Below, piece after piece: positions 10,512-54,201 of a stretch of 64,000 nt of DNA. Under the pieces are notes generated by a model, which worked only from the letters and a program-made list of their open reading frames with translations, was not told the DNA's origin and ran no database searches. The translations under genes and the position numbers were made by a program. The DNA comes from a bacterium (GTDB lineage Bacteria; Patescibacteriota; Minisyncoccia; Sungbacterales; HO2-52-23). Within the stretch, counting starts at the first letter, position 1; each line of letters opens with the position of its first letter. The stretch covers positions 4,686 through 68,685 of the forward strand of contig JAUYPE010000006.1 in NCBI GenBank assembly GCA_030697705.1, read 5' to 3'.

Positions 10512-10540
10512 TATGTTCACCAAAACAAAACTGGAGAATG
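10512..10540. repeat. direct repeat duplicating the 5' end of the M16 peptidase gene (copy 1)
   Basis: tatgttcaccaaaacaaaactggagaatg versus tatgttcaccaaaacaaaactggaaaacg at 11188..11216 (true gene start); together they bracket a MITE + toxin-antitoxin cassette. Confidence 0.7.
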
Positions 10541-10558
10541 ACAATACCCATGTATTCT

Positions 10559-10646
10559 GTCCGTCATCCAGAGCGTAGCGAAGGATCCCGTACGATCTCA
10601 GTATACTGAATACTAGCGGGATTCCTCGTTATACTCGGAATGACGG
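10559..10646. repeat. palindromic MITE-like repeat, copy D (intergenic, full length)
   Basis: gtccgtcatccagagcgtagcgaaggatcccgtacgatctcagtatactgaatactagcgggattcctcgttatactcggaatgacgg; terminal inverted repeats ccgtcatcc / ggaatgacgg; central palindrome tcagtatactga. Confidence 0.75.
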
Positions 10647-10713
10647 GCGGGGGGTCAAATGGGTGAGTCCTAGACGGATTGCGGAGTAACTGATTTTTTG
10701 CTATGATCATCCC

Positions 10714-10917
10714 ATGGAAACTATTGCGGTGCTTGAAGAAACAAAGAACTATATCGTGTTGAAGGTTCCCCGAAGCATGATGCGGCGGATGGATTTTGGT
10801 GCGGAAAAGCTGTCGGAAAGGGCTACCCTGAAGATTCTGCGCGAGGGGATGAGTGAGTATCGGGCGGGGAAGACCAAGACATTACGAAGTTTGCGCGATC
10901 TACGGTATGGAAATTAA
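10714..10917 (+). CDS. putative antitoxin of RelE/ParE toxin-antitoxin pair
   Basis: 67-aa ORF overlapping the downstream toxin start by 11 nt, which is typical type II TA coupling. Confidence 0.5.
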   Translation: METIAVLEETKNYIVLKVPRSMMRRMDFGAEKLSERATLKILREGMSEYRAGKTKTLRSLRDLRYGN

Positions 10918-11173
10918 AGAGATAGAGTACTCGGCACACTTCAAAAGAATGTACGGGCATCTTGGTGCTTTGACGCAGAAAAGGGCGGAACAAAGAGAAG
11001 TGTTGTTCCGGAAAGATCCTTTTGATGCAATACTGAAGACACACAAACTCCACGGTAAATTAAAAGATTTTTATTCTTTTTCAGTTGATAGAAAAACGCG
11101 CATTGTCTTTCGGTTGGTCGGCCGCGCAAAAGCGGTCTTTTTGGATGTGGGGAGTCATGATATTTATCAATAG
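10907..11173 (+). CDS. RelE/ParE-family toxin
   Basis: MEIKEIEYSAHFKRMY...KLHGKLKDFYSFSVDRKTRIVFRL...VFLDVGSHDIY: RelE/ParE fold signature (plasmid stabilisation system toxin). Confidence 0.65.
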   Translation: MEIKEIEYSAHFKRMYGHLGALTQKRAEQREVLFRKDPFDAILKTHKLHGKLKDFYSFSVDRKTRIVFRLVGRAKAVFLDVGSHDIYQ

Positions 11174-11188
11174 GTCTCGCTGAAAACT

Positions 11189-12463
11189 ATGTTCACCAAA
11201 ACAAAACTGGAAAACGGGTTGAGGATTCTTATGGCGCCCATGCAGGGGACGAATACGGTGACGATTTTGGTATTGTGCGGCACCGGCTCCGATTACGAGG
11301 TGCGGGAGCAGGGCGGGATTTCGCACTTTTTGGAACACATGTTTTTTAAGGGTACGAAAAATCGTCCCACGCCCGACGCGATTAAACACGAACTTGACGG
11401 TATGGGCTCGCTCTCCAATGCGTTTACCTCGCATGAATTGACGGGCTATCATATCAAAGCAGCGAAGACGTATTTGGATCAGTCGCTCGACCTCCTCGCG
11501 GATATTTATAAAAACTCAACACTTGCGGGCGAGGAGATAGAACGCGAGCGGCAGGTTATTATTGAGGAGTTGCACAAGGATCGTGATACGCCGACGCTGT
11601 ATATCTGGTGGGTGTGGGAGCATCTGCTCTACGGCGACCAGCCGGCAGGGCTGGATGTCATCGGCGAGGAAAAAATCATTCGCGCGCTCACGCCCGAGGA
11701 CTTCCGGAATTATTTCCACAGTCAGTATGTGGCCGAGAACACGGCGGTCGTGGTGGCGGGTAACTTTGACGAGCGCACAACACTCGCGCGTGTGGGCGAG
11801 CTTTTTGGCGATATGCGCCATGCACCACCCGTGCGGAAAAAGCCGGATGTGGCGCTCGGTCAGTCAGCGCCGCAGGCACATTGTGAGTACAAAGAAACCG
11901 ACCAGACGCATCTTGCCATAGGATTCCACGGCTACGATGCTCTGCATCCGAAGCGGTACGCGGCGGATGTGTTAGCGACCTTACTTGGTGGTTCGTGGAG
12001 CGCGCGGATGTGGGATACGATTCGCGACAAAATGGGTCTTGCCTACACGGTGTGGACGAGCCATGAGTCGTACTCAAACCGCGGATTCTTGACCACCTAT
12101 GCGGGTGTGGATCATAAAAATGTAGAGCAGACAATTCGCGCGGCGCTGGAAGAATACAAAAAAATCCGTGATGAAAAAATCCCCGCAGAAGAACTCAAGC
12201 GCGTCAAGGATTATATTCGCGGAACGACGCTCATCGGGCTTGAGGCGTCTAACGCGGTGGCGAGTTTTGTCGGCTCGGAAGAGATGCTCACGGGGAACCC
12301 CATGACAGTTGAGGAGGTTTTTGCTAAGATAGAAGCGGTAACGCCTGATGATCTGCAGGCGGTGGCACGAGAACTCTTTCGTCCTGAAAAACTGAATCTC
12401 GCCATGATCGGGCCGCAGAAGGACTCGGCTAAGTTCAACGCTCTTCTGAAAGAGTTTTCTTAA
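11189..12463 (+). CDS. M16-family zinc peptidase (insulinase-like)
   Basis: HxxEH zinc motif HFLEHMFFKGT; 424 aa, typical M16 length. Confidence 0.85.
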   Translation: MFTKTKLENGLRILMAPMQGTNTVTILVLCGTGSDYEVREQGGISHFLEHMFFKGTKNRPTPDAIKHELDGMGSLSNAFTSHELTGYHIKAAKTYLDQSLDLLADIYKNSTLAGEEIERERQVIIEELHKDRDTPTLYIWWVWEHLLYGDQPAGLDVIGEEKIIRALTPEDFRNYFHSQYVAENTAVVVAGNFDERTTLARVGELFGDMRHAPPVRKKPDVALGQSAPQAHCEYKETDQTHLAIGFHGYDALHPKRYAADVLATLLGGSWSARMWDTIRDKMGLAYTVWTSHESYSNRGFLTTYAGVDHKNVEQTIRAALEEYKKIRDEKIPAEELKRVKDYIRGTTLIGLEASNAVASFVGSEEMLTGNPMTVEEVFAKIEAVTPDDLQAVARELFRPEKLNLAMIGPQKDSAKFNALLKEFS

Positions 12464-21557: not shown

Positions 21558-22036
21558 GGTTGTGATAAGCATGGGATCAAGAGAAGCATGGTGCACCAAC
21601 TAAAAAATCCATCCGGAAAGATAGATTTTCTAGCGTGGAGCCAAGGGGAATCGGACCCCTCTATCCGAGTTGTTGATCACGGATCCCTCCCAAAGGTGGC
21701 CCCTCGGGCTCCACAAAAGTATGGTATCATTTTTAAAACAAAAAGAAAGCCCGAGATCGCTCTCGGACATTCGGGATCCTCTTGAATCCGTGATCAACAT
21801 AATCAGTGTACTCCTAGCGGTAGGAGAGTGTCAAGTGTCATCACTGGCAGTGGCTTAATTGAAAATTGCGATGCAATGGCATAGATAGAGAGTTATTATA
21901 ATGTATTAGTGGTAGATGTCAATGACTTTTGAGTTTATCCACAGGCATACTTGGCACCATTGCATGACAGGGCAAGAGCCCTTGCCCACTTTCAAATTAC
22001 CCTGCGGATAATGTGGATCATTGGTCTGCCTTTTTT

Positions 22037-23143
22037 ATGAAGCTTTACGAGTACGAAGGAAAGGAATTGTTCAAGAAATATAATATTCCCGTGCCGAAGG
22101 GAGTGGTTGTTTCGCGTGGGGAGGAGGTGCCGGATGGGGACGAGCCCGTGTTTCTCAAAGCGCAGGTAAAGTCGGGAGACAGGAAAAAAGAAGGGGGGAT
22201 TCTAGAGGCGAAAAACCACGCCGCGGCGATGAAGGGTGCGTGGGAACTTTTGGATAAGAAAATAAAAGGGGAGCAGGTGGAAAAAGTATTGGTAGAGGAG
22301 CGCGTGGATGCGGCGAAAGAATACTATGTAAGTTTTAGTTACGACTCGGACTATCGTGCGCCGGTGCTTTCGGTCTCAACCAAGGGCGGATCGGGGATTG
22401 CTAAAGCGCATATCGTTCCCGTTGATATGCTCTGGGGCGTGCCGAATTTTTTTCTGCGCGATGCCCTCACCGCGGCGGGATTTCCCCAAGAAGATATCGC
22501 GGGCGTGAGCCGCGTGGCGCAGAGCTCGTACTCCCTTTTCATCAAAGAATACGCGCTTCTTGCCGAGATGAATCCGTTATTCAAAACGAAAGATGGCGCG
22601 TTTGTTGCCGGAGACGCAAAAATAATTCTGGATGACGAGAAATATAATCCCGGCGAGCGGAGATTTTTGGACATGGATGGAGATATCGCGGTATTGGCAT
22701 CAGGGGGCGGCGCGTCGCTTTTGAATATGGATGCGCTCTTGCGATGCGGCGGCCGGCCGGCAAATTATACCGAATACTCGGGAAATCCCAAGAGCGATGT
22801 GGTCAAAGAATTGACGAAACGCGTGTTAAGTCGTCCGGGGCTCAAAGGATGCTGGGTGGTGGGCGGGACGGCGAACTTTACCGATATTTATGAAACGCTA
22901 AAAGGATTTTTGGATGGTTTGCGGGGAGTTACACCGAAGCCGAATTACCCGATCGTTATCCGTCGTGACGGGCCGCGTCGTGCCGAGGCGTTTGCCATGC
23001 TCAAAGAAGTTAGTGAAAAAGAAGGGTATGATTTTCATCTATTCGGATCCGATACGGCAATGGCGGATACGGCAAAGATTATGGTACGGGAGGCGTATGG
23101 GAAAAAGAAGAGATCGCCGCGCGGTTCTCAAAAAACAGCATGA
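22037..23143 (+). CDS. SucC-like ATP-grasp subunit (succinyl-CoA synthetase beta / citryl-CoA synthetase / ACL B-type subunit)
   Basis: MKLYEYEGKELFKKYNIPVPKG matches the SucC N-terminus MNLHEYQAKQLF..YG.P.P; ATP-grasp then CoA-ligase domain; 368 aa. Confidence 0.75.
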   Translation: MKLYEYEGKELFKKYNIPVPKGVVVSRGEEVPDGDEPVFLKAQVKSGDRKKEGGILEAKNHAAAMKGAWELLDKKIKGEQVEKVLVEERVDAAKEYYVSFSYDSDYRAPVLSVSTKGGSGIAKAHIVPVDMLWGVPNFFLRDALTAAGFPQEDIAGVSRVAQSSYSLFIKEYALLAEMNPLFKTKDGAFVAGDAKIILDDEKYNPGERRFLDMDGDIAVLASGGGASLLNMDALLRCGGRPANYTEYSGNPKSDVVKELTKRVLSRPGLKGCWVVGGTANFTDIYETLKGFLDGLRGVTPKPNYPIVIRRDGPRRAEAFAMLKEVSEKEGYDFHLFGSDTAMADTAKIMVREAYGKKKRSPRGSQKTA

Positions 23144-24045
23144 GTATTTTGATTGATAAAAAAACACGAATCCTTATTCAGGGTATCACTGGTAACGAAG
23201 GAGCGCGCGCGTGCCGCGAGGCACTGGCGTATGGGACAAAAGTTCTTGCCGGTGTGACGCCGGGAAAGGGCGGACAGAGAGTGGAGGGTGTTCCGGTGTA
23301 CAACACAATTGCCGAGGCGATGCGCATACACGCCGCGATAAATACCTCGCTCATCGTCGTGCCCGGAGTGTTCGTCAAAGATGCGGCACTTGAGGCGATT
23401 CATGCGCGTATTCCGCTCATTGTGATACTGACTGAACATGTACCGGCGGCGGACGCGGCATTGATAGTGCACACCGCGCGGCGGTATGGCGTGCGAATTG
23501 TCGGACCCTCATCCATCGGCATCATCTCGCCGGGAAAGGCAAAAATCGGAAGCATTGGGACGGCTGAAATTGCGCATGTTTTTCGCCCGGGACCGATCGG
23601 TGTTATTTCCAAAAGTGGGGGAATGACGGCCGAGATTGCGGTAGTGCTTGGGCGTGCGGGATTCGGGCAGAGCACCGTGGTCGGCATCGGTGGGGATTTG
23701 ATTATCGGCTCGGATTTTGCCGATCTGCTGGTGCTCTACAAAGATGACCCCGAGACTCGCGCCATTGTTTTATTCGGCGAGGTTGGTGGGACGTACGAGG
23801 AGCGGGCGGCGGAGTATATCGCGCAGGCGAGGTTTAAAAAGCCGGTTGTGGCGCTGATTGCCGGACGGTTTGCGGAGGCGTTGTCGGAAGAGACGGTGCT
23901 CGGGCATGCGGGCGCCATCGTCGCGCGCGGACGGGGAAGTTACGCCTCAAAAATCCGCGCGCTCAAAAAAGCCGGCGTGCATATCGCGTCAAGCGTTGAG
24001 GAGATCCCGCTCATTTTGAAACGGGTTATGGGAAGAAAAAAATAA
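23140..24045 (+). CDS. SucD-like CoA-binding alpha subunit with phosphohistidine motif
   Basis: ILIQGITGNEGA (CoA-binding), GPSSIGIISPGK, phosphohistidine loop VLGHAGAIVA; 301 aa; 4-nt overlap with upstream gene. Confidence 0.8.
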   Translation: MSILIDKKTRILIQGITGNEGARACREALAYGTKVLAGVTPGKGGQRVEGVPVYNTIAEAMRIHAAINTSLIVVPGVFVKDAALEAIHARIPLIVILTEHVPAADAALIVHTARRYGVRIVGPSSIGIISPGKAKIGSIGTAEIAHVFRPGPIGVISKSGGMTAEIAVVLGRAGFGQSTVVGIGGDLIIGSDFADLLVLYKDDPETRAIVLFGEVGGTYEERAAEYIAQARFKKPVVALIAGRFAEALSEETVLGHAGAIVARGRGSYASKIRALKKAGVHIASSVEEIPLILKRVMGRKK

Positions 24046-24051
24046 AGGTTT

Positions 24052-24528
24052 ATGGCGGATAAGAAAAAAATCTTGACGCTCTGTATCATCCGCGAGCCTG
24101 GCAGAGTTTTGCTTGGCATGAAGAAGCGGGGATTCGGCGCCGGCAGGTGGAATGGTTTTGGCGGGAAGGTGTGCGAAGAGGAAACAGTAGAGGCCGCGGC
24201 GCGGAGGGAGTTGTACGAAGAAGCGAGTGTCCGTGTGAAGAAATTAAAAAAAGTTGGCATACTGGACTTCAGTTTTGAGTACAATTCTGATCTGCTGGAG
24301 GTTCATGTTTTTAAGGGGGAGGGCATACGGGGAAATCCTTATGAAAGCGAGGAGATGCGACCCCGGTGGTTTTCACTTGACGAGGTACCCTTTCACGAGA
24401 TGTGGCCGGATGACAAATATTGGTTTCCTTTGTTTCTTGCGGATAAAAGCTTTCGCGGTAGATTCCATTTCGGACCGGATGATATGATCGTGGATCAGGC
24501 GCTTTCCGAAGAAGAAAAAATACGATGA
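24052..24528 (+). CDS. NUDIX hydrolase (MutT/MTH1-like)
   Basis: NUDIX box GFGGKVCEEETVEAAARRELYEEASV. Confidence 0.8.
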   Translation: MADKKKILTLCIIREPGRVLLGMKKRGFGAGRWNGFGGKVCEEETVEAAARRELYEEASVRVKKLKKVGILDFSFEYNSDLLEVHVFKGEGIRGNPYESEEMRPRWFSLDEVPFHEMWPDDKYWFPLFLADKSFRGRFHFGPDDMIVDQALSEEEKIR

Positions 24529-25268
24529 TGAAATGGAAAACGGCAATCAGTACGCATAAAGACGGCGAGTTGTATGTCCGCGGGCATGCGCTTGCCGGTC
24601 TCATTAACAAGCACTCGTTTACCGAGATGATTTTTCTTTTGCTTGCCAAGAGAATGCCGAATGAAAAAGAAGTGAAATTGCTTGATGCTGTCCTGGTTTC
24701 GTGCGCCGAGCACGGTGTTGAAGCACCTTCGGCGTTTTCGGCGCGTGTGTCTGTCTCTACGGGAAATTCGCTTCACGCGGCGTTGGCGGCGGGGATTCTC
24801 GCGACCGGCGAGTGGCATGGCGGCGCGCTTGAAAAAGCCGCGGAATACCTGCAGTCGGAAAAAACTCCCTCACAAATCGTACGGGATGTCAGGGAATCAG
24901 GCGGGCGGCTTGCGGGATTGGGTCACAAGATCTACAAAGACAAAGACCCGCGGGCGGAGCTTTTATTTGCCAAAGCGAAAGAACTGGGATTTTCCGGCAA
25001 CTATGTTCTGCGCATGCACGAGTTACAGAATGAGCTGGAGAAACAAAGCGGAAAAAAACTGCCGATCAATATTGATGGTGCCGGCGCGGCGTTAATTTCC
25101 GAGCTTGGATTTGACTGGCGCTTAGGCAAAGCAATCTTTGTGCTCGGGCGACTGCCGGGGATGATCGCGCATGCGCACGAGGAGATGGTGAATGAAAAGC
25201 CGTATCGTCGCTTCAGTGAAGAAGATGTGGAGTATGTTGGACCGGAGCCGAGAGAAGAATTTTTATGA
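24525..25268 (+). CDS. citryl-CoA lyase-like protein (small citrate-synthase-family protein)
   Basis: GEWHGGALE (the HGG motif of citrate synthase), GLGHKIYKDKDPRAELL matching the citrate-synthase signature G-[FY]-G-H-x-[IV]-x-K-x-D-P-R, and INIDGAGA resembling the NVDFYSG region; 247 aa, like Ccl / the C-terminal domain of ATP-citrate lyase. Confidence 0.7.
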   Translation: MMKWKTAISTHKDGELYVRGHALAGLINKHSFTEMIFLLLAKRMPNEKEVKLLDAVLVSCAEHGVEAPSAFSARVSVSTGNSLHAALAAGILATGEWHGGALEKAAEYLQSEKTPSQIVRDVRESGGRLAGLGHKIYKDKDPRAELLFAKAKELGFSGNYVLRMHELQNELEKQSGKKLPINIDGAGAALISELGFDWRLGKAIFVLGRLPGMIAHAHEEMVNEKPYRRFSEEDVEYVGPEPREEFL

Positions 25269-27975: not shown

Positions 27976-28653
27976 ATGCTTCTTTCCCGCAATGCGATTT
28001 TACGTCATTACCAACAAGGGAATATCGTCATTGATCCGTTTGACGAGCGGAAATTAAAAACAGTGAGTTATGATGTGTCGCTCGGCGATTGGTTTTGGCG
28101 CGAGGGGCATCCAGAGGGGCGTGCGACTGTGCACAATCTTTACGACGAAGAATCCACGAAGCGTGTGTGGCAAGGGCCGTTTCAGGCCGAGGCGCGGGAT
28201 GCGGTGTGCGAGCGGCTGGGAATGGATTTGAAAAATATTAAAACGGCGGACAAGATTATTCTCTTGCGTCCCGGCGAAACGGTGCTGGCGCATACAGAAG
28301 AATTTATCGGTGGTCGTGATCGTGCCGTCGCCAAAATGTACGCGCGCTCAAGCATGGGGCGCAATTTTATTGAGGTGTGCAAGGACGCCGGCTGGGGCGA
28401 TATCGGGTACTTCAACCGCTGGACGATGGAGGTGACGAACAATTCACAGTACTTTACTATTCCGTTGGTAGTGGGAAGGCGCGTCGGGCAGATGGTTTTT
28501 TATGAAGTAGAGCCGATCAGTGCCGTTCCCGATTATGTGAAAGAAGGCGGCAAATACCAGTACTCACAGGATATTGAAGAAGTTAAAAAATCATGGAATC
28601 CCCATATGATGATTCCGCAGATGCATAAGGATTGGGAAGTTGGCTCGGAATAG
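27976..28653 (+). CDS. dcd: dCTP deaminase / dUTPase-fold enzyme
   Basis: MLLSRNAILRHYQQGNIVIDPFDE...VSYDVSLGD...ILLRPGETVLAHTEEFIGG typical of dCTP deaminase; internal ATG chosen because the upstream part of the ORF overlaps tsaC in another frame. Confidence 0.7.
   Translation: MLLSRNAILRHYQQGNIVIDPFDERKLKTVSYDVSLGDWFWREGHPEGRATVHNLYDEESTKRVWQGPFQAEARDAVCERLGMDLKNIKTADKIILLRPGETVLAHTEEFIGGRDRAVAKMYARSSMGRNFIEVCKDAGWGDIGYFNRWTMEVTNNSQYFTIPLVVGRRVGQMVFYEVEPISAVPDYVKEGGKYQYSQDIEEVKKSWNPHMMIPQMHKDWEVGSE
28585..28642. repeat. direct repeat (copy 1 = native 3' end of dcd)
   Basis: aaaaaatcatggaatccccatatgatgattccgcagatgcataaggattgggaagtt; near-identical copy at 29396..29452. Confidence 0.75.
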
Positions 28654-28727
28654 CAATTATATCGTAATGGGCGCTCTGCTATGGAGGAAGATTGGAAATT
28701 TTTAGATAAATAGGTTATAATACACCC

Positions 28728-28931
28728 ATGAAAAAATCTACGCTCCCTATCATTGATGTCAAAAAATATGGCGGTAAACAGGTGGCGATTGTGAGAGGAA
28801 AAATCGTTGCGTCTGGCGACTCAACGCGAGAGGTGCTTGTGCGCGCACGGCGGAAGGTTTCCCCTAAAGACAAGAATGCTATCTGGTTACTTACTGTCCC
28901 GCGAGGGCTTACAATGGTTTATCGTTTATGA
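28728..28931 (+). CDS. small hypothetical protein (partner of retropepsin-like protease)
   Basis: 67 aa, MKKSTLPIIDVKKYGGKQVAIVRGKIVASGDS...; 4-nt overlap with downstream protease gene. Confidence 0.4.
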   Translation: MKKSTLPIIDVKKYGGKQVAIVRGKIVASGDSTREVLVRARRKVSPKDKNAIWLLTVPRGLTMVYRL

Positions 28932-29377
28932 CGCTCGTAATACCATACGGAATACGGTTGGCGGGGGATGAAGGGCGGGTTGAAACGGTGCCGGTAGCGT
29001 ATATTCGAGTGCGATATGGTGCTTTCGAAATCCCCGGAATTTTTGTCGTTGATTCAGGAGCAACTACGACTCTTTTGCCCGCTTCCGATGCTGACGAGCT
29101 GGGAATTTCTTTGAAGAAGGGTGGGGAACGAGTCGCGATACAGGGCGCTACTGGTCATGTACTTATGGGATGTCGTCATAGGGTTGATATGGTCATTGAT
29201 AATTTTTTTCTCCATGCCGTACCGGTTATTTTTGCGCGAGCAAAAAACATCCCTCGCGTACTCGGTCGCGAGGGCGTGTTTTCGCGATTTGGGATTCTTT
29301 TTGACGAAGCACGACGGCGTACTGCACTACTTGATGCTCATAAAGAACGAAAAGCCATTGACGGTTTGTTATCATAA
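28928..29377 (+). CDS. retropepsin-like (clan AA) aspartic protease
   Basis: IFVVDSGATTTLL: the D-S/T-G-A catalytic motif with hydrophobic-hydrophobic-D context of retroviral-type aspartyl proteases; 149 aa. Confidence 0.65.
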   Translation: MTLVIPYGIRLAGDEGRVETVPVAYIRVRYGAFEIPGIFVVDSGATTTLLPASDADELGISLKKGGERVAIQGATGHVLMGCRHRVDMVIDNFFLHAVPVIFARAKNIPRVLGREGVFSRFGILFDEARRRTALLDAHKERKAIDGLLS

Positions 29378-29395
29378 GACGCGTATCAACCTACC

Positions 29396-29452
29396 CAAAA
29401 ATCGTGGAATCCCCACATGATGATTCCGCAGATGCATAAGGATTGGGAGGTT
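29396..29452. repeat. direct repeat (copy 2, duplicate of dcd 3' end)
   Basis: cccaaaaatcgtggaatccccacatgatgattccgcagatgcataaggattgggaggtt, about 54/57 identical to 28585..28642. Confidence 0.75.
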
Positions 29453-29628
29453 AACTTGTCGTAGCGCTTTCGCTTTTTATTTTGCCCAGCGACAAAATAT
29501 GCTAAGCATCAACACGGTTTCTCTCGGCGACCATCGGGACCGTGCAAACTGTGTCTCAAATTGTCTCAAAATAAAAGCAAAAGCGCCTGCGAACTCGCAA
29601 GATAATGATCGGGGGGGGGATACATTTT

Positions 29629-30894
29629 ATGAAGTATCTCAAAAAATCAGATCCGCACATCGCAAAACTCATTGTGGCAGAAACGAAGCGTCAACAAGAG
29701 ACGCTTGATTTGATTCCGTCCGAAAACATCGTCTCGTCGGCGGTACGGGAGGCACTCGGATCGGCACTGACGAATAAGTATTCGGAAGGGTATCCGAACA
29801 AACGCTACTATGCGGGGAATGCTGTTATTGATGATATTGAACTACTTGCACAAGAACGGGCAAAAAAAGTTTTCCGGTTAGGCAGTGAATGGTCAGTAAA
29901 TGTACAGGCATTATCCGGTTCGCCCGCGAATATGGCGGTATATTTTGCATTGCTGAAGCCCGGAGATACCTTGCTTGGCATGAGTAGACCATTTGGCGGG
30001 CACTTAACCCATGGCGACGCGGTGAACTTCTCAGGGCAGATTTTTAAGTCAGTGCTCTACACAGTCGCCCACGACGGATATCTTGATTATGGGGAGGTGC
30101 ATAAATTGGCAAAACAGCACAAGCCGAAGCTGATTGTCGCGGGAGCGAGCGCGTATTCGCGCATTATTGATTTTGAAAAGTTCGCCAAAATTGCGCATGA
30201 AGTTGGCGCTTATCTTCTCGTAGACATGTCGCATATTTCTGGTTTGGTTGTTGCGGGCGTACATCCCTCGCCTTTTCCCCATGCTGATGTCGTGATGACA
30301 ACAACACATAAAACATTGCGCGGACCGCGAGGAGCACTTATTTTTAGCCGGAACGATAAGATGATTGCGTCGCGCACAAAAGAAGGAAAAGAAATAAGCA
30401 TCACACGGGCGATTGACAGTGCGGTATTTCCGGGACTGCAGGGCGGACCGCATGACAATCAAACCGCGGCGATTGCTGTGGCGCTGGGTGAGGCGATGAA
30501 ACCGGCGTTTAGGGTATATGGGAAGCAGATTGTAAAAAACGCCAAAGCGCTCGCAAAAAATTTGCAAAAACTCGGATTTAAAATCATTTCAGGCGGGACA
30601 GATAATCATCTGATGTTGATTGATATGACACCCCTCGGCATGTCCGGGCGCGAGGCGCAGGATAAGCTTGAATCAGTCGGCATTATTGTGAATCGCAATA
30701 CGATTCCTTACGATACGCGCTCCGCCTTTGATCCATCCGGTATCCGCATCGGCACACCCTCTCTCACGACGCGCGGGATGAAGGAAAAAGAAATGGCGTT
30801 GATTGCCGGATTCCTTCATGCTACCGTGCAGGGGGAAAGTATTGGCACTTTGAAAAAACAGGTCTTGGCACTCTGCCGAAAGTTTCCCGTCTGA
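29629..30894 (+). CDS. glyA: serine hydroxymethyltransferase
   Basis: LIPSENIVS...YSEGYPNKRYYAGN...TTTHKTLRGPRG (PLP lysine); start MKYLKK at 29629, an upstream in-frame ATG at 29605 is also possible. Confidence 0.92.
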   Translation: MKYLKKSDPHIAKLIVAETKRQQETLDLIPSENIVSSAVREALGSALTNKYSEGYPNKRYYAGNAVIDDIELLAQERAKKVFRLGSEWSVNVQALSGSPANMAVYFALLKPGDTLLGMSRPFGGHLTHGDAVNFSGQIFKSVLYTVAHDGYLDYGEVHKLAKQHKPKLIVAGASAYSRIIDFEKFAKIAHEVGAYLLVDMSHISGLVVAGVHPSPFPHADVVMTTTHKTLRGPRGALIFSRNDKMIASRTKEGKEISITRAIDSAVFPGLQGGPHDNQTAAIAVALGEAMKPAFRVYGKQIVKNAKALAKNLQKLGFKIISGGTDNHLMLIDMTPLGMSGREAQDKLESVGIIVNRNTIPYDTRSAFDPSGIRIGTPSLTTRGMKEKEMALIAGFLHATVQGESIGTLKKQVLALCRKFPV

Positions 30895-34369: not shown

Positions 34370-35758
34370 TTATCTCAATACGTTATACACGATTGTAGGT
34401 GAAGTGTTGATTTGTTTTTCCTGTCGGAGGAGTGTACGAACTTCTCCCACCACATAAAGGGAGCCGGTGATGAGCACGAGTCCGTCATCCGCGAGTGTCG
34501 CGCGAGCTTTCTTTAGTGCTTCGTGGGGAGAGGCGGTGCAGGCAATAGGAGCAGTAATTCCCTTCGCGTATAAAAGTTCGGCGAGCGCCGCAGGATCCAT
34601 GCCGGTGCTTTTCCCCGTATCCGTTACGGCGGAGCTTTGTGTAAATCTGAAGTCGACAATCAACGGCGCGAGGATATCAAGCATGCTCGCAACATCTTTT
34701 CCTGTCTTTGCCCCGAAAACGCAGGATATTTTTTTGTCGGGAAAAATTTCACGAATGGCATCAACTAATGCCCGCATTTTTGCGGGATTGTGCGCGCCGT
34801 CAAGAACAATAAGCGGGGAGCGCGAAATAATTTCCATGCGTCCGGGTACGCGGCATGCGGCCAGACCCTGGCGAAATGCGACAGGCGCTATGGCAACTCT
34901 TGTTTCTTCCAGCGCTTCAACTGCGGCGACGGCGCATGCGGCATTTTCTATTTGGTGCCGACCGAGGAGGGAGATTGTTAAATCAGTATAATTTTTTTTT
35001 GAGGTCGTGATGGAAAATCGGGAACCATTGCTATTGGATGCGGTGATGGAATAGGTGACATCTCTGCCGATGAGCATAAGGAGTGCATTTTTTTCACGGC
35101 ATCTGTTTTCTATGATCTCGCGCACGCTTGGCTGTTTTGCGGCACTTATGACTTGCATGCCTTGTTTTATAATCCCTGCCTTGTCGCGCGCGATTTCCTC
35201 CACCGTATTGCCGAGAATTTCCGTGTGGTCCAGGTCAACATTCGTGAGTACCGCGACGGGCGGCGCAAGAACATTTGTCGCATCCCGTTCGCCGCCGAGA
35301 CCAACCTCAACCACCGCGATCTCAACACCCGAGCGGCGGAAGTGTTCAAACGCGAGTGAGACGAGGACCTCAAAATAAGTTGGGGTGCCAAAGCTGCCGG
35401 TTTTCTCCACTTCTTCAACAAACGGGCGAATCCACGAAACCAGCACGGCAAAATCTTCCTGCGTAATTGCTACGCCGTTTATCTGTATTCGCTCGCCGAT
35501 ATACTCCAAATGGGGTGAGACATGGAGTCCCGTCTTATATCCCGCCGCTGTGAGAATAGAGCTAATAAGATAGCATGTTGATCCCTTCCCCGATGTTCCG
35601 CCAACATGCACACTCTTAAAACTCCGCTCCGGATTCCCGATACGTGCAAGCAGGGCTTGGATTCTTTCAAGCCGCAAATTCTGCACGAGCGGTGTTCCGG
35701 CTTTCGGAATCAATGACTCAACATACGCGAGGGATTGGGGGAAAGAAAAACGATCCAT
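34370..35758 (-). CDS. folC: folylpolyglutamate synthase / dihydrofolate synthase (Mur ligase family)
   Basis: P-loop HVGGTSGKGST; Mur-ligase middle and C domains; 462 aa. Confidence 0.85.
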   Translation of the reverse strand: MDRFSFPQSLAYVESLIPKAGTPLVQNLRLERIQALLARIGNPERSFKSVHVGGTSGKGSTCYLISSILTAAGYKTGLHVSPHLEYIGERIQINGVAITQEDFAVLVSWIRPFVEEVEKTGSFGTPTYFEVLVSLAFEHFRRSGVEIAVVEVGLGGERDATNVLAPPVAVLTNVDLDHTEILGNTVEEIARDKAGIIKQGMQVISAAKQPSVREIIENRCREKNALLMLIGRDVTYSITASNSNGSRFSITTSKKNYTDLTISLLGRHQIENAACAVAAVEALEETRVAIAPVAFRQGLAACRVPGRMEIISRSPLIVLDGAHNPAKMRALVDAIREIFPDKKISCVFGAKTGKDVASMLDILAPLIVDFRFTQSSAVTDTGKSTGMDPAALAELLYAKGITAPIACTASPHEALKKARATLADDGLVLITGSLYVVGEVRTLLRQEKQINTSPTIVYNVLR

Positions 35759-35766
35759 TGCATTAT

Positions 35767-36120
35767 CCTACAGATTTATTAAAAAAAGTCAGTTACCCGC
35801 GAGAGCGCACAAGTGTCCTCGAACAAATGCCAGGGGTGGAGATTGTAGAACAGAACATTCAGGTTGATCACATCCACACCGTGATGATCATCCCATCCAA
35901 GTATGCGGTAAGCGCGGTGGTCGCACAACTGAAGGCGAAGAGTGCCGGAAGGCTGCGGAAAAAGTTTGTATGGCTTGATAAGATGTATTGGAAAGAACTG
36001 AACATCGTTTGGTCGCCTGGCTTCTTTGTTGCTACCGTGGGACTGGACGAGAAACACATTATTCACTATGTCAGATGGCAACAACGCCAGGATTCAGGAC
36101 AGTTAAAACTGAATTTTTGA
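35767..36120 (+). pseudogene. tnpA: IS200/IS605-family Y1 transposase TnpA, 5'-truncated relic
   Basis: VEIVEQNIQVDHIHTVMIIPSKYAVSAVVAQLKAKSAGRLRKKFVWLDKMYWKELNIVWSPGFFVATVGLDEKHIIHYVRWQQ: HuH (HIH) and catalytic-Tyr region of IS200 TnpA. The N-terminal beta-strand (xYHxVWCPKYRR) is absent; folC begins on the opposite strand at 35758 and would overlap it. Confidence 0.7.
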
Positions 36121-54078: not shown

Positions 54079-54188
54079 GTCATTCCGAGCGTGAGCGACT
54101 GCCAGGAGGCGTCCCGTGAGGGGGGAATTCCGTTAATATTCAGCATACTGAAATTGTACGGGATCCTTCGCTACGCTCTGGATGACGG
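54079..54188. repeat. palindromic MITE-like repeat, copy F (intergenic, opposite orientation)
   Basis: gtcattccgagcgtgagcgactgccaggaggcgtcccgtgaggggggaattccgttaatattcagcatactgaaattgtacgggatccttcgctacgctctggatgacgg. Confidence 0.75.
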
Positions 54189-54201
54189 AGTTGTTTTTGC
54201 T

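Follow-up and report, generated by a model that had tools for sequence, protein, structure and literature searches.

The 64,000-nucleotide (nt) stretch of contig JAUYPE010000006.1 analysed here (assembly GCA_030697705.1, hereafter the window) carries a two-gene insert between dcd, which encodes a dCTP deaminase-like protein, and glyA, which encodes serine hydroxymethyltransferase. The insert encodes a small DUF5678 protein and a retropepsin-like aspartic protease and is bracketed by two versions of the dcd 3′ end, only the left of which is attached to the gene. The features of the locus, with protein lengths in amino acids (aa), are as follows.

27976..28653, + strand: dcd (dCTP deaminase-like), 225 aa, intact (Pfam DCD, 1.3e-30)
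28586..28641, + strand: left, functional repeat copy, 56 nt (KSWNPHMMIPQMHKDWEV), holding the core 28608-28639 (repeat comparison)
28654..28727, + strand: 74-nt spacer with a promoter-like site (TTGGAA 28692-28697, 18 nt, TATAAT 28716-28721)
28728..28931, + strand: 67-aa DUF5678 gene (Pfam DUF5678, 8.9e-8, above cut-off)
28928..29377, + strand: gene of the 149-aa predicted retropepsin-like (clan AA) aspartic protease (Pfam, active-site motif, fold model)
29378..29396, + strand: 19-nt spacer from the protease stop to the abrupt start of the right copy, the junction (sequence)
29397..29464, + strand: right repeat copy, a non-functional dcd 3′ remnant ending in KSWNPHMMIPQMHKDWEVNLS and an in-register stop (3 of 3 differences synonymous)
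29465..29628, + strand: 164-nt spacer before glyA, either native upstream region or the remains of an older insert (no Rfam match)
29629..30894, + strand: glyA (serine hydroxymethyltransferase; Pfam SHMT, 4.9e-165), with dcd-glyA synteny in most of 80 related species

The resident dcd had 1076 homologues at an E value of 1e-40 or below, the closest of them from Candidatus Sungbacteria and other Parcubacteria. The DNA between the two repeat copies (28654-29396) comprises 743 nt and encodes the DUF5678 protein and the protease only. Open reading frames (ORFs) and Pfam profiles revealed no recombinase gene between the repeats, the ends of the insert carry no inverted repeats, and the 19-nt junction spacer had no motif in common with the matching flank of 45 other cassettes. 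The GC content and skew of the insert were the same as those of its flanks, so that composition gives no hint of a foreign origin. Rfam recorded no family in the region, a single tRNA-Leu being the sole RNA match in the whole window. The promoter-like site upstream of the DUF5678 gene matches the consensus at 10 of 12 positions, a consensus match only, and a similar site precedes the first gene in most members of the family.

Two dcd ends around the insert

The direct repeat at 28586-28641 and 29397-29452 comprises 56 nt, 53 of which are identical. The initial annotation had placed it at 28585-28642 and 29396-29452 with 54 identities in 57 nt; the repeat itself exists, but these coordinates and this count were slightly off, since positions 28585 (A) and 29396 (C) do not match and thus lie outside it. 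It had also been described as the last 57 nt of dcd, which is incorrect, as the left copy corresponds to nt -68 to -13 counted from the dcd end (KSWNPHMMIPQMHKDWEV) and stops 12 nt short of it. Those final 12 nt, three codons and the stop, are identical between the copies at only 5 of 12 positions and yet keep the register: the left tail reads GGCTCGGAATAG (GSE and stop) and the right tail AACTTGTCGTAG (NLS and stop), each with its stop in register. When the in-register tail is included the repeat measures 68-69 nt. The three mismatches within the repeat (TCA/TCG, CAT/CAC and GAA/GAG) all fall at third positions and are synonymous in the dcd frame, and the exact core common to both copies is 32 nt long (28608-28639). 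This core is a local peak of nucleotide conservation near the dcd end (0.81 against a gene mean of 0.72 in 20 relatives). At the protein level, KSWNPHMMIPQMHKDWEV is conserved in 120 dcd homologues and the last three residues are the variable part, with neither NLS nor GSE found at the C-terminus of any of the 120.

No other direct repeat at a spacing of 6 kilobases (kb) or less in the window is as long, and a scan for direct repeats with a minimum length of 24 nt and a minimum identity of 85% gave one further match, around a second cassette described below. The right copy belongs to no genuine gene further downstream, as no ORF of at least 40 aa lies in frame and its conservation is at the nucleotide level. 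The duplication is also no assembly artefact, because the junctions of the right copy were seen in independent assemblies. Contig JAXMJB010000083.1 of GCA_034376815.1 and the Logan contig SRR26726066_6935 both run out of the protease gene into the right copy for its first 24-34 nt and carry its two distinguishing bases, and the Logan contig SRR13727529_67240 runs contiguously from the right-copy core through the NLS tail into glyA. All three independent contigs end within the 32-nt identical core, where assembly graphs built on short k-mers (k = 31) would break.

The pattern of differences between the copies indicated that they behave as two alleles of a gene end. We compared codons in 15 repeat pairs with an assignable frame, which was fixed from the known peptide of the functional gene, and counted 43 synonymous against 7 non-synonymous differences, with no stops and no frameshifts. 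If a single template had been duplicated and the remnant had then drifted while the gene took silent changes only, the expected silent fraction would be 0.36 (binomial P = 4.6e-13). Older remnants (L005 and L010 in the numbering of loci introduced below) do show non-synonymous decay, as expected after insertion.

Two further loci add to this picture. At L012, a RelE/ParE-like pair, judged so by sequence with no profile search run, lies between two glyA N-termini that are plainly unlike each other but have in common an identical 33-nt block right at the junction (33/33). At L017, a DUF5678-protease pair follows glyA, and a glyA 3′ remnant begins 9 nt past the stop of the pair. This remnant is a mosaic: 41 nt at 88% identity, a palindromic insertion, 60 nt at 98%, and then a diverged but homologous 19-codon tail with an in-register stop. 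The synonymous excess, the different in-register tails, the N-termini at L012 and the mosaic identity at L017 together led us to treat the repeats as two alleles of a gene end. Both copies had thus diverged within working genes, and one of them therefore looks imported. Separately, the insertion in the L017 remnant (11109-11138, about 30-32 nt, ATTATCCCCACGCCTATACTTTAGGTGTGGGG) is palindromic and missing from the functional glyA.

Inserts at the dcd-glyA junction and at other genes

We compared 80 species-level dcd loci (L numbers, which further loci cited below bear as well), among which dcd followed by glyA is the usual arrangement. The gap between the two genes is 2-8 nt in L007/L009, L014 and L016 and ranges from an overlap to about 100 nt in many more; these empty-site genomes belong to species other than that of the window. 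The empty sites of 2-8 nt in L007, L014 and L016 uphold the earlier description of the pair as an accessory insert.

The junction is occupied by different pairs across the relatives and is thus a hot spot for small two-gene modules. L005, L006 and L010 carry an MNT-HepT pair in the gap with a second dcd end after each, L013 has a distant DUF5678-protease pair in the gap, and L035 has an MNT-HepT pair on the glyA side. In L006 the second dcd end is identical to the resident one at 34 of 34 positions, with NSV and stop as the resident tail and GAV and stop as that of the remnant. The second end in L010 is degraded but still in register (resident GSA and stop, remnant TNI and stop), and the one in L005 has become fused with an ORF downstream. 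The right copy of the window starts 24 nt further upstream than the MNT-HepT remnants, which marks the insertion in the window as an event independent of theirs.

Some of these relatives showed further peculiarities. At L005 (4078-4677) the displaced dcd 3′ remnant (MIPQMHEDWKISSG...) supplies the start codon and N-terminus of a called ORF of 199 aa, a possible case of gene birth or extension from a recombination scar. Downstream of glyA in L013 (10486-12313) lie three overlapping families of direct repeats of 64-84 nt, 97-100% identical and spaced about 875-920 nt apart, which points to a tandemly repeated unit or to a further array of cassettes. Around dcd in L064 (4432-10403) an element of 156-170 nt with terminal inverted similarity is present in 3 copies within 6 kb, 93% identical, and resembles a miniature inverted-repeat transposable element (MITE).

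The same kind of scar was found at other genes. Within the window, a second cassette (10512-11214) lies between 27-nt repeats (26/27 identical) of the 5′ end of an M16 peptidase gene (MFTKTKLE), which bears out the likeness in architecture that the initial annotation had drawn between the two inserts. The left repeat is a dead start directly after a MazG-like gene, and two genes lie between the repeats:

10714-10917: antitoxin-like 67-aa gene
10907-11173: 88-aa gene with a weak, sub-threshold YafQ/RelE-like match (E 2.9e-4)

In L089, a DUF5678-protease pair and a flavin mononucleotide (FMN) reductase gene are bracketed by 31-nt repeats of promoter-like sequence upstream of tuf. L140 (4453-9265 of contig Ga0155009_110) has the atpG 5′ end three times over (82 and 67 nt, 93-94% identity). 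These copies divide off, in turn, a DUF5678-protease pair with a 349-aa gene and then an MNT-HEPN pair, a 223-aa gene and an AbiEii gene from the functional atpG. Here a whole array of cassettes has formed at the start of one gene.

To ask how common such bracketing is, we used the 35 distinct DUF5678-protease cassettes that have flanks of 300 nt or more to the left and to the right, with random 650-nt segments of the same loci as controls. Repeats of 22-128 nt tightly bracketed 10 of the 35 cassettes against 4 of 2882 control segments, and adding looser or more diverged cases (L017, L089, L118, L136 and L140) lifts the bracketed fraction towards one half. The bracketing repeats all differ from one another. 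Their sources are dcd, glyA, atpG, the stretch preceding tuf and no fewer than 8 further sequences, and several of them end exactly at a stop codon or begin just before a start codon.

Three observations were made in passing at or near such loci. The str operon of two Sungbacteria genomes has small accessory genes inserted into it (L089, 146-629 and 2851-3760; L090, 3430-3777), with HicB-HicA between rpsG and fusA, and Phd-like-looking, DUF2283 and MazG-like-looking genes together with DUF5678-protease between fusA and tuf. L041 (1358-2012) holds a 74-nt repeat of the 5′ end of a gene (MIIFLYGPDDYRREAKKREILAEF) 581 nt upstream of the functional copy, and 9 of 9 differences between the two are synonymous. 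Lastly, a palindromic element of about 90 nt occurs twice in the window, at 10555-10650 (+ strand) in the left part of the RelE-like cassette and at about 54110-54200 (- strand) between an rpsU-like ORF and the next gene. The two copies share a 28-nt exact match where none is expected by chance. The element folds as a long hairpin that is not more stable than its shuffles (z = -1.2), and it may be a repeat of the repetitive extragenic palindromic (REP) or MITE-like kind.

The DUF5678 protein and the retropepsin-like protease

The two genes of the insert are co-directional and overlap by ATGA, which together with the Pfam matches confirms the pair of a 67-aa gene and an overlapping clan AA protease gene proposed from the sequence at the outset. 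The 67-aa protein matched DUF5678 with 32.3 bits (cut-off 23.2). Its 95 homologues share the invariant stretch K12-K13-Y-G-G-K-Q-V-A20. The AlphaFold2 model has a predicted local distance difference test (pLDDT) score of 84.8 and describes a small alpha/beta fold that had no significant structural match in the PDB, and the fold therefore gives no functional clue.

The 149-aa protein matched gag-asp_proteas (PF13975) with 39.3 bits (cut-off 28.2) and Asp_protease_2 (PF13650) with 38.1 bits (cut-off 24.3), and its match to TIGR02281 was below the cut-off of that family. It carries the motif VVDSGATT, and D42, S43, G44 and A45 as well as G113-R-E are invariant in 24 homologues. The AlphaFold2 model of the monomer (pLDDT 80.6) had as its best Foldseek match the Rickettsia protease APRc (PDB 5c9f, E 2.8e-6) and also matched HIV-1 protease (E about 1e-4). 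Profile, motif and predicted fold thus agree in identifying the protein as a putative retropepsin-like protease of clan AA. It shares the D-S/T-G-A active-site motif with APRc, but sequence identity to APRc is about 20%, and the window protein, unlike APRc, is always paired with DUF5678; it has no Pfam match besides the protease domain and one sub-threshold hit.

We found 57 metagenomic loci with the protease alignment as query, 53 of which have upstream sequence, and in 53 of these 53 a DUF5678 gene lies directly upstream. The two genes travel together, a point that the initial annotation had raised, and we regard them as an obligate pair. The closest protease homologues (P0123 and P0130) sit at loci other than dcd. 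Literature searches returned nothing relevant on DUF5678 or on a retropepsin with a toxin-antitoxin system.

The likeliest role of the pair, inferred from its context, is that of a toxin-antitoxin, addiction or defence module, with the protease kept in restraint by its small partner; the DUF5678 protein is accordingly a proposed inhibitor or antitoxin. This suggestion rests on the shared layout (a small upstream gene, an overlapping larger gene and a promoter of their own) and on the same niches. Like type II toxin-antitoxin modules, the pair consists of two small overlapping co-directional genes with a promoter-like site, has a patchy distribution, and sits between core genes beside bona fide pairs. 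It differs from them in that retropepsin-like proteases are no established toxin family and DUF5678 is uncharacterised. The cargo of other repeat-bracketed inserts is toxin-antitoxin-like as well (YafQ/RelE-like, the weak match at E 2.9e-4 below cut-off, MNT-HepT, MNT-HEPN and AbiEii), and nearly all inserts found through their flanking repeats are toxin-antitoxin pairs. Addictive cargo would explain why repeat-flanked inserts persist when recombination between the repeats could otherwise easily remove them, and also why those detected by their repeats turn out to be toxin-antitoxin pairs.

Probable route of entry and alternative explanations

We consider it probable that a related Sungbacteria-like genome was the source of the cassette and that recombination anchored on the conserved dcd 3′ end brought it in. 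The incoming DNA would have carried its own dcd end beside the self-promoted two-gene cassette. After recombination dcd would be complete, and the end of the other allele, made up of 19 conserved codons, a three-codon tail of its own and a stop, would be left beyond the cassette as a scar. The entering DNA may have been a linear fragment that paired with dcd through homology at one end and was joined illegitimately within the recipient's dcd end at the other, a process called homology-facilitated illegitimate recombination. Alternatively, a circle carrying the cassette and a gene end may have entered by a single Campbell-type crossover in the 32-nt core, in which case it could be excised again by recombination between the repeats. 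The two variants fit equally well. The core, as the best-conserved nucleotides near the dcd end, would be the place where recombination between diverged genomes is most feasible. Entry of a linear fragment would also explain the position of the scars at gene ends, since where dcd and glyA can lie 2-8 nt apart almost any other join would destroy a gene. In L005 and L006 the HepT stop (AAATGA) and the opening bases of the remnant (AAATGATCC) overlap, perhaps the trace of a microhomology join.

Homology-facilitated illegitimate recombination is said to have been described in natural transformation by de Vries and Wackernagel in 2002 and by Prudhomme et al. in 2002, and reportedly combines one homologous anchor with one illegitimate join. 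As in the scars described here, no enzyme of the element is needed, and the same structure would result if the join fell inside the recipient's gene end. In the literature we searched, this experimental process was not linked to toxin-antitoxin cassettes or to gene-end duplicates, and searches on illegitimate recombination with duplication gave no relevant paper.

The earlier suggestion that the two cassettes of the window share an insertion mechanism is sustained in part. A common mechanism that leaves the target gene intact is strongly indicated, whereas classical site-specific integration, with no recombinase, no conserved ends and many target genes, is not supported. A precedent with an integrase is the insertion of e14 or phage 21 in the 3′ end of icd of E. 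coli. There the gene keeps working with a new 3′ end supplied by the element, while the end that was pushed aside persists as a partial duplicate whose differences are mostly silent; the element has its own integrase, one fixed site and a length of many kilobases. The window resembles this in that dcd has two complete ends whose tails differ, of which the left alone is joined to the gene, but its insert measures 0.74 kb and lacks an integrase, and the cassette family inserts at many targets.

We therefore weighed, as the first alternative, a tyrosine or serine integrase with its attachment site in the dcd 3′ end that carried a replacement gene end and was later lost or acted in trans. We consider this unlikely, because there is no recombinase, no inverted repeat and no shared end motif, and the targets are many. 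The icd/e14-like architecture, with a duplicated 3′ end bearing synonymous differences and a displaced end as a pseudogene, would suit such an enzyme, as would the fact that the repeats of the window pair and of the MNT-HepT pairs overlap the same 32-nt dcd core. However, no integrase lies between the repeats in the window, L005, L006, L010 or L017, and one cassette family is bracketed by at least 12 unrelated sequences that shared no motif on inspection. With no conserved site at the cassette ends and repeat lengths of 22-128 nt, a separate integrase, since lost, would have to be assumed for every case.

Among described phenomena, insertion with long target duplication comes closest, and it is known from complexes of restriction-modification genes (Nobusato et al. 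2000, Gene 259:99; Furuta, Abe and Kobayashi 2010, PMC2853133). Its repeats vary in length, some overlap gene 3′ ends, no mechanism has been found since 2000, and DNA double-strand breakage by the cargo has been proposed as the cause (PMC2853133). The insert in the window is likewise a small unit without mobility genes, between direct repeats of more than 30 base pairs (bp) that are single-copy in insert-free genomes, here those of other species. The differences lie in the cargo, which is DUF5678 and an aspartic protease rather than a restriction-modification system; in the setting, a genome of the candidate phyla radiation (CPR) with very short intergenic spacers in which the repeats are gene ends; and in the two copies, which behave as different alleles and not as a duplicated target. 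The cargo of the window cuts no DNA, and the double-strand-break idea does not apply here.

A true insertion with long target duplication, in which the recipient's own dcd end was copied to both sides and the copies then diverged, has little probability in our estimate, and for the reasons of codon position and in-register tails we rejected target-site duplication as such. The formal features given in PMC2853133 are all present (a repeat of more than 30 bp, an insert of less than 20 kb, no mobility genes and a single copy in insert-free genomes), and some pairs are perfect (34/34 in L006, 33/33 in L012). A drifting remnant does not give the 43:7 synonymous excess (P = 4.6e-13), however, and the tails or N-termini past the identical block are homologous, strongly diverged and in register in the window, L006, L010, L017 and L012. 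Identity moreover runs as a mosaic from diverged to near-identical and back to diverged. Later allelic replacement of one copy was considered and rejected as well, since mismatches lie on both sides of the identical core in the window and in L017.

Less probable again is an old, immobile arrangement, that is, one ancestral partial dcd duplicate in which cargo was later swapped and gene conversion kept the copies similar. The right copy of the window reaches 24 nt further upstream than the MNT-HepT remnants and cannot derive from them, clean empty sites exist in close relatives, the same scar occurs at many other genes, and gene conversion does not explain the synonymous excess. The observations that would favour such an arrangement are that the MNT-HepT cassettes of three species share the junction between HepT and remnant and are as diverged as dcd, and that every remnant is closest to its own resident copy.

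Two known types of element were ruled out. An integron cassette is not compatible with 19 nt between the protease stop and the repeat and with no conserved or palindromic 3′ element across 45 cassettes. A transposon or insertion sequence is excluded by the missing terminal inverted repeats, the absence of a transposase in the insert, and repeats that are long and non-identical with diverged tails. A misjoin of two strain variants of the dcd end during assembly is scarcely credible: that three short-read assemblies all break within the repeat would fit it, but the same contigs connect the protease to right-copy variants and the right-copy tail to glyA, each break lies within the exact 32-nt core, where k = 31 would put it, and the same architecture recurs in many unrelated assemblies.

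Several observations weigh against entry by recombination or against a toxin-antitoxin role. About half of the cassettes are without any repeat, and the repeats were found by a seed-and-extend search that needs a high-identity block, so that finding such a block every time is partly an effect of ascertainment. The MNT-HepT cassettes have diverged as much as the host genes (62-80% at the nucleotide level) and may be old and vertically inherited. Yet the resident dcd end is in every genome the nearest match of the MNT-HepT remnant beside it (34/34 in L006), something that would take gene conversion or repeated re-integration. Exact-protein look-ups of dcd, protease and glyA returned only contigs with the cassette or broken in the repeat, and no empty site of the same species. 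The closest relative, L005, has a dcd that is 97% identical in protein and about 85% in DNA; a sliding identity window against it was flat along dcd, with no crossover point visible. As to the cargo, Pfam and NCBIfam contained only the protease and DUF5678 families for the pair and no known toxin or antitoxin family, and PADLOC gave a weak match of the protease to the candidate system PDC-M08B (8.4e-5).

A recent account of chromosomal toxin-antitoxin islets calls their integration unclear and proposes acquisition on mobile elements followed by spread through recombination at flanking core genes (PMC13617665, 2026). Unlike those islets, the window shows a specific recombination scar. The locus and its relatives make this scar readable, with a resident and an imported allele, mosaic identity round a short identical block, many gene ends as targets, and arrays. 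It hints at how small modules enter chromosomes without a mobility enzyme of their own and suggests why the ends of essential genes in very compact genomes turn into insertion hot spots. The DUF5678-protease pair is itself an uncharacterised, strictly paired module and a candidate for a new toxin-antitoxin or defence family.

More tentatively, and with considerable doubt, the cassettes might be recombinase-free mobile elements that carry a portable gene-end homology arm, move into any related genome and out again by host recombination and are maintained by addictive cargo, the DUF5678-retropepsin pair being a new protease-based toxin-antitoxin or defence family. If this were true, repeated events would build cassette arrays at gene ends, for instance the three atpG starts in L140. 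The cassettes would then be a functional analogue of tRNA-gene integration or of integrons, minus the integrase, and would explain the spread of toxin-antitoxin systems in streamlined CPR genomes.

Two features elsewhere in the window were recorded in addition. A small IS200-like Y1 transposase gene (35644-36120, + strand; Pfam Y1_Tnp, 9.5e-17) lies between folC and a Na/Ca exchanger gene. At about 22013-25268, genes matching ATP-grasp_2/Citrate_bind, CoA_binding/Ligase_CoA and Citrate_synt stand in a row with a NUDIX gene between them, a putative ATP-citrate-lyase-like set that looks unusual for a CPR genome.

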